A DNA stretch of 17,054 nt from Deltaproteobacteria bacterium. GTDB lineage: Bacteria > Desulfobacterota > Dissulfuribacteria > Dissulfuribacterales > QOAL01. Below the pieces are notes generated by a model, which saw nothing but the letters and a program-made list of their open reading frames with translations, searched no databases and was not told the DNA's origin. Below are positions 2,823-10,273 of the stretch, piece by piece. Position 1 is the stretch's first letter; each line of letters opens with the position of its first letter. The stretch is taken from the NCBI GenBank assembly GCA_015489315.1, contig WFZZ01000072.1, positions 1-17,054 on the forward strand, in the 5' to 3' direction. A program made the translations under genes and the position numbers.

Positions 2823-3050
2823 TCAATCTACTGACTCAACCGAGCTTACTTCCGGCACCTCACTCTTAAGATAGCGCTCAATACCTGCCTTTAAGGTCAT
2901 CTGGCTCATGGGGCACCCCTTACATGCCCCTGTAAGCCTTACATTTACAACCCTAGTCTCCTCATCAACATCCACAAGTTCAACATCTCCACCATCTTGC
3001 TGAAGCATTGGACGGACCTTCTCAAGGGCTTCTTTAACCTTTTCCTTCAT
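2823..3050 (-). CDS. NifU C-terminal (Nfu-type) Fe-S cluster assembly/carrier domain protein
   Basis: [30 protein letters not shown]...[25 protein letters not shown] is the classic Nfu fold with a CxxC motif. The start was moved to the ATG at 3050, which has GGAGAG 7-8 nt upstream. The longer track ORF (to 3131) would overlap thiE by 62 nt. Confidence 0.85.
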
Positions 3051-3069
3051 GTCTAGCTCTCCTTTTTCT

Positions 3070-3705
3070 TTAAAAGATACTTGAAATCTCTTTTGCTCTT
3101 TTTTGAATGTCTTTGCACCTCCAAAGACCACTTATTACAGCCACCATGTCTGCGCCTTTTTTAACAAGTAACCCTGCATTTTCACGGTTAATTCCACCAA
3201 TGGCACAGATTGGGACATTAAGCTTTCTTTTGGCCTTTTTGAGTAAATCCATCTCTGCCTTGACTGCGTCTGGCTTTGTTGGAGAAGGGAAAAATGAGCC
3301 AAAGGCCACGTAATCTGCCCCCATTTTTTCGTATTTCATGGCAAGTTCAAGCCTGTTATAACATGAGACTCCGATAATTGCTTTATTCCCCAGTTCCTTT
3401 CTAGCTTCTTTAAGGGAAATGTCATCTTTTCCAATATGAACTCCATGGGCCCCAATCCTTTTTGCAAGGTTAACCCTGTCATTGACAATGAACAAACAGT
3501 TAAATTCCTTACAAATATCTTTTAATTTCAAGGAAATAGAAATCAGCTCTTCATCCTTATGGGTTTTATCCCTTAACTGAATAATCCTGGCACCTCCCGA
3601 CAGGACCTCTTTGACTTTATCAAGGATTAAATCATAAGGGGTCAATAACTCATCTGTAATGGCATAAAGGCCCTTAAGGCTTTCATTCCTTGTATGTTTC
3701 ACCAT
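3070..3705 (-). CDS. thiE: Thiamine-phosphate synthase ThiE
   Basis: Motifs [60 protein letters not shown] and PICAIGGI. The track start at 3717 is a TTG lying inside the terminator U-tract. The ATG at 3705 (MVKHT...) is preferred, but the start is uncertain. Confidence 0.9.
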
Positions 3706-6222: not shown

Positions 6223-7506
6223 CTATTCCTTCCACCTCATTGGAAAAATCAGTCTTACCGTTGTCCCAAGCCCCTTTTGGCTTTCTATATCTATCTTCCC
6301 TTGGTGCTCAAGCATTATATGATGAACCATAATAAGGCCGACCCCTGTACCAGATGGCTTGGTGGTTACAAGTTCCTTGAAAAGACGCCTTTTAATCTTT
6401 TCATCAATTCCAATGCCGTAATCTTTTATCTCAATTGTAGGTCTTCCATTTATCCTGGCGATATTGATCTCTATAGGAGATCCTTCTATAGAGGCATCCA
6501 GGGCATTTTTTAACACATGAAGAAGTGCAACCTTCAGGGTCTTTGGATTTCCGTGAATCTTCAAAGGGCCATCATAATACTTGACCCTTAACCTTATGTT
6601 CTTTTTCTCAAAACCTGGCATCCAAGCCTCCAAGACCTCCTTAACCAGATCATTTAGGTCTAGCTCGACAAAAAACACCTCCTGTTCCTTTACCAGTCCC
6701 TCAAAATCTTTAACTATCTGTTCAAGCTTTTGTGCCTCTTGAAAGATTGCCTGGACCTTGGCCAGAAAAGGCGAATCTTTTGGCATCTTCTTTAAAAGAC
6801 GCCTTGAAAGCCCTCCTATTACAGTTGCCGGGTTTCTTATTTTATCTGCAATCCTTAAGGCAAATTCCACAACAGTCCGCTCATGAACCAGGGATTCCAT
6901 GTCCTTACTTAGTTCCAAAAGTTCTGCATTTACCTTATCAAGCTCTTTATTCTTTATGGTAAGGGTCTTTAAAAGCCTCAGGACCTCTTCGTGCTTTGCC
7001 CGAAGATTTTCCAAATAGGACTCTTCTATATCCTTAAAAAGTCTCTTTTTAATGACATCGTTTTTCTCTTCCAGGTCTTCGCAGGACTGGGTTGCACCAA
7101 AAAAAATAATTCTTATTCGATTTATTTCTCCCTTTTCCCCTTCCTCAAATTCCAAATTGTCAGTGACCTTTTTTGAAGAAGAGATAAAGACCTTGTCACT
7201 AGCTTCATTTTTAATAAATAAAAATGGGGCTTTCTCAGAAGAAAACTCTAACATGATCCCTGATTCAAATTGAGTAAGCCCAGGTATCCTCCTACAGATA
7301 ATAAAGAATGTGGCAAGTCCTCCTTGTGAACGCCTTAAAATTCTCCTTGAAATCTCAGACGAAATAAGGCCAATCTGAGATGACTTTATCTTGGAGAAGC
7401 CAAGGATATCTGAAAGGGCCTTTGCCTTTGTCCTTACCAGGGGTATATCGTTCTCTTTTTTAATGACAAGGCTTAAAACATGTATATTATGATCTATTTT
7501 TTCCAT
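6223..7506 (-). CDS. Histidine-kinase-like ATPase with degenerate RsbT-like N-domain, coiled coil, His-less DHp (H->D) and intact HATPase_c
   Basis: The C-terminus has an N-box (HVLKNALDA), G1 (KDYGIGI), F-box (LFKELVTTK) and G2 (GTGVGL). The H-box position reads FALRIADKIRNPATVIGG, versus the typical aHEIRNPLtaI. N-terminal residues 10-60 (VIKKENDIPLVRTKAKALSDILGF...ISSEISRRIL) resemble the first half of RsbT but lack the Asn and the G-boxes. Confidence 0.8.
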   Translation of the reverse strand: MEKIDHNIHVLSLVIKKENDIPLVRTKAKALSDILGFSKIKSSQIGLISSEISRRILRRSQGGLATFFIICRRIPGLTQFESGIMLEFSSEKAPFLFIKNEASDKVFISSSKKVTDNLEFEEGEKGEINRIRIIFFGATQSCEDLEEKNDVIKKRLFKDIEESYLENLRAKHEEVLRLLKTLTIKNKELDKVNAELLELSKDMESLVHERTVVEFALRIADKIRNPATVIGGLSRRLLKKMPKDSPFLAKVQAIFQEAQKLEQIVKDFEGLVKEQEVFFVELDLNDLVKEVLEAWMPGFEKKNIRLRVKYYDGPLKIHGNPKTLKVALLHVLKNALDASIEGSPIEINIARINGRPTIEIKDYGIGIDEKIKRRLFKELVTTKPSGTGVGLIMVHHIMLEHQGKIDIESQKGLGTTVRLIFPMRWKE

Positions 7507-8588
7507 TGCCAGATAAGTAAGCTTGCATCATCCGAAAACAATTGCTCTTCAGGAACTTCAAATAACATGTTAACAAGAAGAAGTGGTGAAAAATCCATCA
7601 GTTCTTTTGTAAAAATACCTGTCTCTATCCTGGGAATAATCTTTAACCCATCAGAAAAAATTATCCCCATCATATCTTTATGGGCTGAAAATCTTTTTTT
7701 AAAAATACCGTTTTTGACATTTATCTTTCCGATTACGCCTGGATTCCCAACTACAAATTCACCCTTTCCGTTCCAGCTGACAAACTGGGACACGTCACCG
7801 ATTGCATAGATATCAACTAAATTCCTTTCAAAATCAAAATGCACTAGCTGTGCCATCAATCCCCGTGTTCCAAGAAGGGCATTTCCAAGTTCAAATAGAC
7901 AGTCATTTGGGGCAACACTTGGTGAAATCCTTTCAAGAAGACCTTTGGCTTTACATAGAATTTTAGCAGCTTCTTCTCCCTTACCCAAAACATCCATTAG
8001 CATCAATCTCATATATGGATATTCATATACAATTGAAATACCATCACCACTGTATCTTCCAAGTTTATTGGGACATATCAGATAGGAAAATTTTACATGA
8101 GGGGAAATAAAGTCTTCATCTGGAGACCAGAAACAGGCACAAACCACTGTCTTATAAACTGCTTTCTTTTCTAAATTAAAGATATCAGGGCAGGGAACAT
8201 TGCCAAAATGCCCAGAACAAATAGAAAAATCATTACTGAGCCTTTTTACGCAATTAAGACCACTTCTTAGACCTTTCCTCGGAAAATAATTTAAGTCTTT
8301 ACCGTTTAAATCAAAGATACCCGGACCTTCGTCAAGGCTGGAGATACTCATGAAACACCTTTTTTCGTCTATCCTTTGTGAAAATAGCCTTATTATCCCT
8401 CCAGAAGTCTTATGATCAAGATGGTTTTGAGATAGCTCAGAAGTGCAAAGGACAATATCTTCGACCCTATCCTTGTTAAATCCTGCCAAAAGGGCAATTT
8501 CCCTTGAAACTCTCCTTGCAATTAGGACGTGGGACTCTTCATTTATCTCTATCTCTCTAAAATGAGGCTGTATCTTTTCTAAATCCAT
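7494..8588 (-). CDS. RsbT-like GHKL (anti-sigma-type Ser kinase) domain fused to a PP2C/SpoIIE-family phosphatase (RsbX-like)
   Basis: The N-terminal domain reads IEINEESHVLIARRVSREIALLAGF...CTSELSQNHLDH...GGIIRL...SSLDEGPGI...GLRSGLNCVKRLSNDFSI and parallels RsbT. The C-terminal domain has SGDGISI, LMDVLGKGEEAA, GNPGVIGK, IIFSDGL and SDDASLLIW, matching the PP2C/RsbX metal-binding Asp motifs. It overlaps the rsbT stop by 10 nt. Confidence 0.8.
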   Translation of the reverse strand: MDLEKIQPHFREIEINEESHVLIARRVSREIALLAGFNKDRVEDIVLCTSELSQNHLDHKTSGGIIRLFSQRIDEKRCFMSISSLDEGPGIFDLNGKDLNYFPRKGLRSGLNCVKRLSNDFSICSGHFGNVPCPDIFNLEKKAVYKTVVCACFWSPDEDFISPHVKFSYLICPNKLGRYSGDGISIVYEYPYMRLMLMDVLGKGEEAAKILCKAKGLLERISPSVAPNDCLFELGNALLGTRGLMAQLVHFDFERNLVDIYAIGDVSQFVSWNGKGEFVVGNPGVIGKINVKNGIFKKRFSAHKDMMGIIFSDGLKIIPRIETGIFTKELMDFSPLLLVNMLFEVPEEQLFSDDASLLIWQWKK

Positions 8589-8995
8589 TTAATGGCCTCT
8601 ATGTAAGTGCCACCTGTGATATTACTTGCTATCCGCACCTGATCTGCCAGTTTAAAGATGAGATTTAATCCCATGCCAAGTCCACCATCTTCTGAAGAGC
8701 CTGGAAGTAGTGCCTCGTCAAGATCTGAAATGCCCTTTCCCACATCTTCGCCAATTATCTTGACAACAGTCTTTCCTTCTTTGTTTAAAGCCTCTATTGT
8801 CACCCTGCCCCTTTTGCCATGTCTTAGGATATTTTTAGATATTTCATCAAGGATGGTAAGTAGCATGACCTCTTTACTATCCTTTATTTGACCTAAAAGA
8901 TTTAAGATCTTTCTTAGTTCTTTTCTGACAACTGGAATATCTAACTTGGAACGTATCAAAATTTCCTTTTTGACCGCTGGACACCTGGAATCCAT
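8579..8995 (-). CDS. rsbT: Stressosome switch Ser/Thr kinase RsbT
   Basis: MDSRCPAVKKEILIRSKLDIPVVRKELRKIL...ILDEISKNILRHGKRGRVTIEA...IIGEDVGKGISD...GGLGMGLNLIFKLADQVRIAS...GTYIEAIKW aligns end to end with B. subtilis RsbT (about 133 aa). The start was set at the ATG at 8995. The track start at 9106 would overlap rsbS by 92 nt, and that extension has no RsbT counterpart. Confidence 0.88.
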   Translation of the reverse strand: MDSRCPAVKKEILIRSKLDIPVVRKELRKILNLLGQIKDSKEVMLLTILDEISKNILRHGKRGRVTIEALNKEGKTVVKIIGEDVGKGISDLDEALLPGSSEDGGLGMGLNLIFKLADQVRIASNITGGTYIEAIKWI

Positions 8996-9014: not shown

Positions 9015-9383
9015 TTATGCGCCTTTAACAATTTTATATCCAAGCCTTTGTAAGGCCTGCTCGGTATCCAGGGCAAAAAGAAGACCCTTTCCAAAAGACA
9101 TCTCAAAACTTTTTAGGGCAGCAATGGCATGGGCCCTCAGCCCAGTAATTACAATCCTTACCTTAAATAGCCTCATGGTATTGGCAAGTCTTTGGATATT
9201 TTCTGCCAAAAAGGTATCTATGACATCAACATCACCAAGATCAACTATAACTGCTTTGCTTTTTCTTTTTTTTACCTGAGAAGACAAGGCCCTTAATAGG
9301 CTCAAGATGCCCTCATCGTCTATCTCCTCCTGGATTGTAACCAGACAAATTTTTCCTAGATGAAAAATAGAATAGGGACGCAT
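9015..9383 (-). CDS. rsbS: Stressosome scaffold STAS protein RsbS
   Basis: A 122-aa single STAS domain (ICLVTIQEEIDDEGILSLL...AVIVDLGDVDVIDTFLAENIQRLANTMRLFKVRIVITGLR). The phospho-acceptor position (B. subtilis Ser59 in VVDSF) is Thr here (VIDTF). Confidence 0.85.
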   Translation of the reverse strand: MRPYSIFHLGKICLVTIQEEIDDEGILSLLRALSSQVKKRKSKAVIVDLGDVDVIDTFLAENIQRLANTMRLFKVRIVITGLRAHAIAALKSFEMSFGKGLLFALDTEQALQRLGYKIVKGA

Positions 9384-9394
9384 TATAAAGATAC

Positions 9395-10267
9395 TTATTG
9401 TTCTTCCATAAACACCGTGCTTTCCCTGTGCCTTTTTTGAAGCTTCATTAGCTTTTGGATCGCATAATGAAGGCCATCTGCCATTCGGCTTCGAACATTT
9501 ATTGTCCCAAGGTCAACTCCAAGATGTGCCATTGTAAGGGCAATTCTTGATGAAATCCCTGTAAGTATCGCCTCACTTCCCATAAGCCTTACTGCATCTA
9601 CTGTTTGAAGAAGATGATTGGCTACAGCAGTATCCACGTTTGGAACACCTGTTATATCAATTATCACAAAGGGGGCCCTTGTATGTTCAATAGTTACCAA
9701 GAGCCTCTCCATGGCCGACTGGGCCCTGTGGCTATCAAGGGTTCCAACCAAAGGTAGCGCCAAAACCCCGTCCCATACTTCTATCACTGGTGTGGAAAGC
9801 TCAAGTATCTCTTCCTGAAGATGCCTTATGTCTTCGTCACGCTTTTTCAAAAGCTCCTCTTGCTGTTTGACAATAAGGCGCTCCTTTTCAAGCCTGTCTG
9901 AAATGTCAATAAAATGCTCAACACAGCCAATAACTTCCCCTTTTAGGTTTTTTAGAGGCCTGCTGGCAAACTCAATGGGAATTTCCTTGTCTCCTACCTT
10001 TAAGGTGGTCTGGCCTTGATTGACACTGTTTTGGCTAGTGGCAACCTTGCATGTGCAATTTTCTGTCTGACACATGGGGGTGTTAAATATCTCATAACAC
10101 TTTCTGTCAAAACAATCTCCTGGGGTCCTTCCAACCATTTCTGCCCCCGCCTTATTGATAATCAGAATATTATGCTCAAGGTCTGTGACAAAGATACCGG
10201 AAGGAACCGCATTGATTATTTCAAATAAAAAACCTTCGTCTCCTTGATAATCCTTGAGATTGTTCAT
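9395..10267 (-). CDS. rsbR: RsbR-like stressosome sensor: N-terminal Cys-rich PAS domain, coiled-coil linker, C-terminal STAS
   Basis: The C-terminus reads STPVIEVWDGVLALPLVGTLDSHRAQ...VIIDITGVPNVDTAVANHLLQTVDAVRLMGSEAILTGISSRIA. This closely matches the RsbRA STAS domain (IDITGVPVVDTMVAHH), with both phospho-Thr positions conserved. The N-terminus is a PAS fold (FEIINAVPSGIFVTDLEHNILIINKAGAEMVG...IGCVEHFIDISD). The second ATG (10267) is preferred because AAGGAG directly abuts the first ATG at 10273. Confidence 0.88.
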   Translation of the reverse strand: MNNLKDYQGDEGFLFEIINAVPSGIFVTDLEHNILIINKAGAEMVGRTPGDCFDRKCYEIFNTPMCQTENCTCKVATSQNSVNQGQTTLKVGDKEIPIEFASRPLKNLKGEVIGCVEHFIDISDRLEKERLIVKQQEELLKKRDEDIRHLQEEILELSTPVIEVWDGVLALPLVGTLDSHRAQSAMERLLVTIEHTRAPFVIIDITGVPNVDTAVANHLLQTVDAVRLMGSEAILTGISSRIALTMAHLGVDLGTINVRSRMADGLHYAIQKLMKLQKRHRESTVFMEEQ

Positions 10268-10273
10268 GGCCAT

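Follow-up and report, generated by a model that had tools for sequence, protein, structure and literature searches.

The stretch of DNA analysed here (17,054 nucleotides, hereafter the window) carries on its reverse strand a gene for an RsbR-like protein, followed by genes for an RsbS-like protein, an RsbT-like kinase and two further proteins. The features were located as follows; residues are numbered from the ATG at position 10273, and the homologues found in the databases begin two codons later, at 10267 (290 aa).

9395..10273 (-), RsbR-like gene, 292 aa: PAS domain, linker helix and STAS domain
9884..10234 (-), PAS domain, residues ~14-130, from Pfam, AlphaFold2 (AF2) secondary structure and VIA
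10049..10114 (-), five-Cys cluster C54, C59, C68, C73 and C75, with the core triad C59/C68/C73
9917..9925 (-), C117-V118-E119 on strand I-beta; E119 is the carboxylate of the subfamily and C117 a clade-specific extra
9797..9901 (-), long linker helix leading from PAS to STAS, residues 125-159, a helix in the AF2 model
9449..9796 (-), RsbR-type STAS domain, residues 160-275, from phmmer and Pfam
9015..9383 (-), RsbS-like single STAS protein, 122 aa, the adjacent gene after RsbR
8579..8995 (-), RsbT-like serine kinase, 138 aa from the ATG at 8995
7494..8588 (-), 364-aa protein, RsbT-like in its N-terminal half and uncharacterised in the C-terminal one
6223..7506 (-), histidine-kinase-like protein (HATPase_c 5.1e-19, HisKA 7.8e-05), candidate output

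The C-terminal half of the RsbR-like protein was matched by Pfam STAS over residues 162-254 (1.1e-14). When its C-terminal 157 residues were compared with the PDB by phmmer, V. vulnificus RsbR (1.2e-27) and Listeria RsbR (8.8e-27) were retrieved, with the motifs LSTPV, PLVGTLDSHRA and IDITGVPxVDT in register; the GTLDSHRA and VDT motifs are conserved in the RsbR-like STAS domain. The best structural match obtained with VIA-align was Listeria innocua RsbR (7b0u_A, Z 18.9, rmsd 2.4 A, 158 residues), in an alignment covering model residues 123-280, that is, the linker helix and the STAS domain. By the alignment offset, S181 and T215 occupy the positions of the Listeria RsbR phospho-sites T175/T209. 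Judged from these matches, the product of 9395..10273 is a stressosome RsbR.

The neighbouring protein aligned with Listeria RsbS (1.1e-12) and B. subtilis RsbS (3e-10). In this protein Thr57 (9213-9215) replaces the phospho-Ser (VIDTF versus the FIDSF of Listeria S56/B. subtilis S59). The RsbT-like kinase was identified by HATPase_c_2 (5e-07) and by matches to NCBIfam spIIAB/RsbA-type families. The 364-aa protein reached 1.9e-4 against HATPase_c_2 (21.9 bits, below the cut-off of 27.4), and its C-terminal half had no Pfam match. The order RsbR-RsbS-(RsbT)-fusion-histidine kinase was found by tblastn to be kept in five orthologous loci (L001-L005), which belong to the five species-representative genomes holding a full-length orthologue. 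A separate RsbT follows RsbS in L001-L003, and L004 and L005 have no stand-alone RsbT: in these two loci, L004:3909-5372 (a Desulfobulbaceae MAG) and L005:7982-9449 (a Deltaproteobacteria MAG), RsbS is directly followed by the 364-aa-type protein. Hence, the 364-aa-type protein with its RsbT-like N-terminal half may be the kinase there. Downstream of the operon and on the same strand lie genes for a NifU-like domain protein (2823-3131, 2e-31) and for the selenocysteine synthase SelA (937-2349, 4.5e-163), which are probably unrelated to the stressosome operon.

The N-terminal domain was assigned to the PAS fold by Pfam (PAS_4 over residues 21-127, 6.7e-13; also PAS_9, 6.2e-10), by the AF2 secondary structure and by VIA, which gave Z values of 11-12 against LOV, PYP, Aer and NifL PAS domains. 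The translation contains GDCFDRKCYEIFNTPMCQTENCTCKV, in which Cys54, 59, 68, 73 and 75 form the pattern C-x4-C-x8-C-x4-C-x-C. Their codons lie at 10112-10114 (C54), 10097-10099 (C59), 10070-10072 (C68), 10055-10057 (C73) and 10049-10051 (C75), so that they span exactly the interval 10049-10114 to which a preliminary description of this DNA had assigned a five-Cys pattern. A sixth Cys, residue 117 in the motif IGCVEHF (codon 9923-9925), had been placed by the same description on a later strand, and it does lie inside strand 114-123 (I-beta) of the AF2 model. No CxxCH motif is present in the whole RsbR-like translation, as had been noted before in arguing that c-type haem is unlikely; with CxxCH missing, c-type haem is ruled out.

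Cys makes up 1.43% of the residues encoded by the ORFs of the source genome, and only 60 of its 2202 ORFs of at least 150 aa have at least five Cys within 22 residues. The Cys cluster of the RsbR-like protein is more than a product of chance. Conservation was assessed in an alignment of the query with its 120 best homologues (121 sequences, 57-100% identity, all PAS-STAS proteins of ~290 aa). C54, C68 and C117 were kept in all 121 sequences, C59 and C73 in 120 and C75 in 118; the comparison of orthologues that the preliminary description had called for thus returned all six cysteines in 118-121 of the 121 sequences. K58, F63, R105, P106, G116 and V118 were invariant as well, and E119 was kept in 120 of 121. 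Position 61, two residues after C59, is Glu in 77 sequences of the alignment, the query among them, Asp in 43 and Asn in one, and position 67 in this RsbR clade is Met, Ile or Leu, not His. Named sources of the homologues are Dissulfurirhabdus, Dissulfurimicrobium, Desulfobulbaceae and other Thermodesulfobacteriota. In the taxonomic order to which the window belongs, a full-length orthologue, one per genome, was found in 29 of the 61 genomes searched (27 of 47 when only high-quality genomes are counted).

The position of the cysteines in the fold was examined in an AF2 model built from 83 homologues, whose mean pLDDT was 80.8 (80-87 over the Cys region). Helix 59-62 (E-alpha) begins with C59, and C68 is in the loop that comes next; C73 and C75 stand where helix 74-81 (F-alpha) begins, and strand 114-123 (I-beta) contains C117. 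A PAS-only profile gave weak but consistent matches to LOV domains of the PDB (6rhg, E 0.0063; EL222, E 0.012), which pair C59 with the Cys of the LOV GRNC motif and put positions 117, 119 and 121 on the I-beta face that also carries the flavin-contacting Gln. The roles of these residues in LOV domains are well established. C59, C117 and E119 are thus predicted to point into the canonical cofactor pocket, and C68, C73 and C75 to sit on its E-alpha/F-alpha wall. The earlier proposal that the cysteines lie in the region of the PAS ligand-pocket helices is therefore supported indirectly by the AF2 secondary structure and the LOV alignment, which map them to that pocket.

YtvA, the blue-light LOV-STAS component of the B. 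subtilis stressosome (PDB 2mwg), has the same PAS-linker helix-STAS arrangement and was the top Foldseek match of the RsbR-like model (6.5e-15), with C59 aligned to the LOV cysteine. However, the flavin motif GXNCRFLQ of LOV domains is not found in the RsbR-like PAS, where the corresponding segment (DRKCYEIF) keeps only the Cys and F121 stands at the Gln position; a LOV/flavin reading was rejected. The NCBIfam YtvA_fam match was confined to the STAS half (83.6 versus a cut-off of 250).

The distribution of the cysteines was then followed beyond the RsbR clade. A PAS-only search against all 1.84 billion cluster representatives returned 9037 matches at E<=1e-3, not all of them with Cys; the best 150 of these 9037 were mostly multi-PAS chemoreceptors, histidine kinases and sigma54 activators. 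A search of the ESM Atlas returned only generic PAS clusters. The hosts that could be named are anaerobes (Dissulfurirhabdus, Dissulfurimicrobium, Desulfobulbaceae, Thermodesulfatator and Archaeoglobales). When 340 related PAS domains drawn from the proteins of the all-library search were re-aligned, the triad C59/C68/C73 was kept in 259, usually with the spacing C-x8-C-x4-C and in six aligned domains as C-x8-C-x3-C. Among the triad domains C75 was present in 46%, C54 in 34% and C117 in 3%; C54 and C75 occurred independently (the share of domains with C75 being 41% when C54 is present and 46% when it is absent). K58, F63, T65, T70, T89, Y102 and above all E119 were specific to domains with the triad. 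E119 was found in 93% of triad PAS domains, whereas Cys-less PAS domains have Gly there. About half of the wider subfamily has a His immediately before C68.

Co-variation was measured by MI-APC on 353 non-redundant PAS domains, a score of co-occurrence across related sequences and not of contact. The pair C59-C73 ranked second, C59-E119 fifth, C59-C68 seventh and C73-E119 twenty-first; several other top pairs (S25-I122, G26-F121 and K92-E97) look like sheet or hairpin neighbours. C75 and C117 coupled only weakly. C54 coupled with A44 and not with the triad, which suggests that it is a packing residue; since it also stands in place of the Val or Leu of the family, C54 was considered unlikely as a ligand. 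On the evidence of these alignments, the family-wide core is C59-x8-C68-x4(3)-C73 plus Glu119 on I-beta, co-varying as a unit, and C54, C75 and C117 are optional extras in the subfamily, all three of which are fixed in the RsbR clade. The subfamily was defined by the signature K-C-[YF]-x-L-F-x-T-x-x-C-x-T-x-x-C ... G-x-x-E. By this measure the Cys-PAS cluster is not peculiar to the RsbR-like protein and marks a large, almost uncharacterised subfamily.

Several other arrangements were seen among the relatives. In a sister class with the motif C-x10-C-x2-C-P, 17 of 28 domains have a Cys at position 117, indicating that a fourth thiol has been recruited at this position more than once. A six-Cys PAS 57% identical to that of the RsbR-like protein is fused to a kinase ATPase domain in P0143 (409 aa), and P0157 (402 aa) joins a six-Cys PAS (53-57% identical, the range being shared with P0143) to a C-terminal region with no Pfam match; the module is thus portable and not restricted to RsbR. 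P0188, P0194, P0223 and P0256 are giant multi-PAS metagenomic proteins of up to 1900 aa, with 3-5 or more tandem four-Cys PAS copies, counting those that were aligned, of the form G-E-K-C-Y-R-x-Y-E-G-x-x-K-x-C-x-G-C-P ... S-C-L-E. If each PAS copy binds a cluster, proteins of the P0188 type would be multi-cluster cytoplasmic sensors.

OrpR was the only characterised relative found for this PAS subfamily. This sigma54 activator of D. vulgaris Hildenborough has an N-terminal PAS domain with a redox-sensitive [4Fe-4S]2+ cluster, which is converted to [3Fe-4S]1+ by mild oxidant; redox sensing depends on its conserved C52, C61 and C65, and the conserved Asp/Glu54 was modelled within 6 A of the Cys triad (PMC8359166). 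These published residues correspond to the signature C-x-[D/E]-x6-C-x3-C, which was present in both PAS domains of a PAS-PAS-AAA+-HTH activator encoded in the source genome (L081), in 22 of the 30 top-ranking sigma54-activator loci retrieved when 301 genomes of the phylum were searched, and in Desulfacinum infernum WP_073040138.1 (P0295, 453 aa; C50, E52, C59 and C63). The 301-genome search returned OrpR-like sigma54 activators only from genera other than Desulfovibrio, and the link to OrpR was made through the published residue numbers and these homologous activators, not through the sequence of the D. vulgaris OrpR itself. The RsbR PAS aligned with the PAS of L081 at 4e-15 and with that of P0295 at 2e-15 (26-29% identity), with C59, E61, C68, C73 and E119 in register with the sigma54-activator PAS and one gap between the second and the third Cys. 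The RsbR-like PAS thus resembles OrpR in having three Cys from E-alpha to F-alpha, the first of them followed at +2 by an acidic residue (C59, E61, C68 and C73, versus C52, D/E54, C61 and C65). Its spacing is C-x8-C-x4-C versus the C-x8-C-x3-C of OrpR, both spacings occurring within one subfamily. The hosts of the two proteins are alike, being anaerobic Thermodesulfobacteriota. They differ in output, an RsbR STAS domain in a stressosome operon here and an AAA+/HTH activator in OrpR, and, unlike OrpR, the RsbR-like PAS has three further fixed Cys (54, 75 and 117).

The PAS domain of NreB had been put forward in the preliminary description as the precedent, with the reservation that its spacing differs. 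In NreB, a sensor kinase for O2 or sulfide in Staphylococcus and Bacillus, the Fe-S motif of the PAS is CX2CX11C(X2C) (PMC13478379). The RsbR-like protein would resemble it in having a cytoplasmic PAS with a Cys-held Fe-S cluster, as proposed here, but NreB has no equivalent of C59, another spacing and a histidine kinase output. The RsbR PAS matched PDB entry 9wex, presumably the NreB PAS of B. licheniformis, at E 0.019, a weak similarity that does not extend beyond the N-terminal half of the domain. The difference in spacing therefore stands; since the motif CX2CX11C is not found in the RsbR-like PAS, NreB is not its closest model. A PAS family survey mentions only nine NreB-like Fe-S PAS domains.

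Since the conserved Cys of the PAS agree with those of an iron-sulfur redox sensor already described, the probable input of this stressosome is redox state or oxygen. We favour, with moderate confidence, an Fe-S cluster in the PAS pocket that would provide a redox/O2 input to the stressosome. The Cys-ligated cofactor (Fe-S or Zn) suggested previously is supported, most likely as Fe-S, by the OrpR-type signature of the PAS domains with which the RsbR PAS aligns at 2e-15 and 4e-15.

Zn2+ bound by Cys3-Glu or Cys4, either as a structural metal or as a thiolate switch that releases Zn on oxidation, as RsrA and Hsp33 do, appears unlikely, though not negligible. The conserved Cys triad with its carboxylate is compatible with tetrahedral Zn, and sequence alone cannot separate Zn from Fe-S. 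However, OrpR, which has the sole PAS of this signature to have been characterised, carries Fe-S; the 8-4 class has no CxxC knuckles, the C-x2-C-P end of the sister class is ferredoxin-like and the family occurs in anaerobes. The Zn ligands of WalK are His, Asp and Glu, and it is not known to use Cys. WalK is the Zn-binding PAS cited in the survey mentioned above. A metal-free domain, in which reversible disulfides among the six conserved thiols (for example C54-C59, or C73-C75 with C68/C117) would sense thiol redox state or oxidants directly, an option that the preliminary description had also raised, is quite improbable: six conserved thiols in one domain would suit it, but it leaves the coupled Glu119 and the conserved Thr/Lys shell unexplained, the presence of C75 does not depend on that of C54 across the family, and a cluster is present in the homologous OrpR. 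A different cofactor or a small ligand, such as an organic ligand or b-type haem with a Cys thiolate as axial ligand, with the Cys as ligands or pocket liners, is the least probable of all, for although PAS pockets are versatile and about half of the wider subfamily has the His before C68, the RsbR clade has Met, Ile or Leu at position 67, no His on F-alpha and no CxxCH, and the LOV flavin motif is absent but for its Cys.

For the Fe-S cluster we infer the identity of the cofactor, the ligand set, the signal and the direction of signalling as follows. The likely ligands are C59, which opens E-alpha, C68 in the E-alpha/F-alpha loop and C73, with which F-alpha begins; Glu119 on I-beta, or else C75 or C117 from among the clade-specific thiols, would supply the fourth ligand. 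A three-Cys-plus-carboxylate site would fit the [4Fe-4S]-to-[3Fe-4S] lability of OrpR. Conversion or loss of the cluster, which would be brought about by a higher redox potential, by O2 or by another species reacting with it, would alter the PAS beta-sheet, its I-beta strand and the linker helix 125-159. The altered linker helix may in turn affect the STAS core shared with the RsbS-like protein and, through it, the capture or activity of the RsbT-like kinase, from which the signal would pass to the putative kinase-phosphatase fusion (364 aa) and the histidine-kinase-like protein encoded downstream.

The RsbR of Vibrio is a haem-globin O2 sensor of the stressosome, which is modulated by O2 binding, and the mechanism proposed here would parallel that modulation (PMC4976288, PMC9237108). 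The Vibrio protein (PDB 7o0i) likewise belongs to a Gram-negative RsbR-RsbS-RsbT module without SigB, and the STAS domains of the two proteins are closely similar (1.2e-27). The sensor domain differs, being a haem globin in Vibrio and a Cys-rich PAS with a predicted cofactor here.

The inputs of stressosomes are a long-standing question and, to our knowledge, only YtvA (LOV) and the haem-globin RsbR of Vibrio have a defined signal. No RsbR with a Cys-rich or Fe-S PAS was found in the literature searched, in keeping with the earlier suggestion of a new input type for an RsbR; nor was any study of the chemoreceptor-type Cys PAS found there. The architecture itself is not new, since a Chloroflexaceae PAS-STAS protein (L023:4953-5831), 32% identical over residues 12-273, has a PAS without Cys, GRSAYDLFPADVV, and thus the RsbR-type STAS pairs with different PAS types. 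As far as the literature searched shows, what is new is the coupling of the Cys-PAS sensor type to an RsbR STAS domain, the Cys-PAS module itself being widespread. If true, a cofactor-bearing RsbR with a spectroscopic handle would add a third system amenable to study, and strict anaerobes would have their first. A broader proposition, which we regard as evenly balanced, is that this would be the first Fe-S RsbR stressosome, with a redox/O2 (or NO/sulfide) input serving strict anaerobes, that the Cys3-Glu PAS would likewise sense redox state in many chemoreceptors, kinases and sigma54 activators of anaerobic bacteria and archaea, and that C75/C117 may allow ligand switching. The analysis also flags a very large PAS subfamily, often present as tandem repeats in chemoreceptors, and with its signature many sensors of anaerobes could be annotated as redox/Fe-S sensors.

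Four more Cys-PAS sensors were observed in the source genome (G000), on contigs C171 (L083 and L084), C252 (L081) and C36 (L082). One is a chemoreceptor with two C-x8-C-x4-C PAS domains and another a hybrid kinase with C-x10-C-x2-C; the OrpR-type motif C-x-[D/E]-x6-C-x3-C is found in the remaining two, the PAS-PAS-AAA+-HTH sigma54 activator and a histidine kinase.
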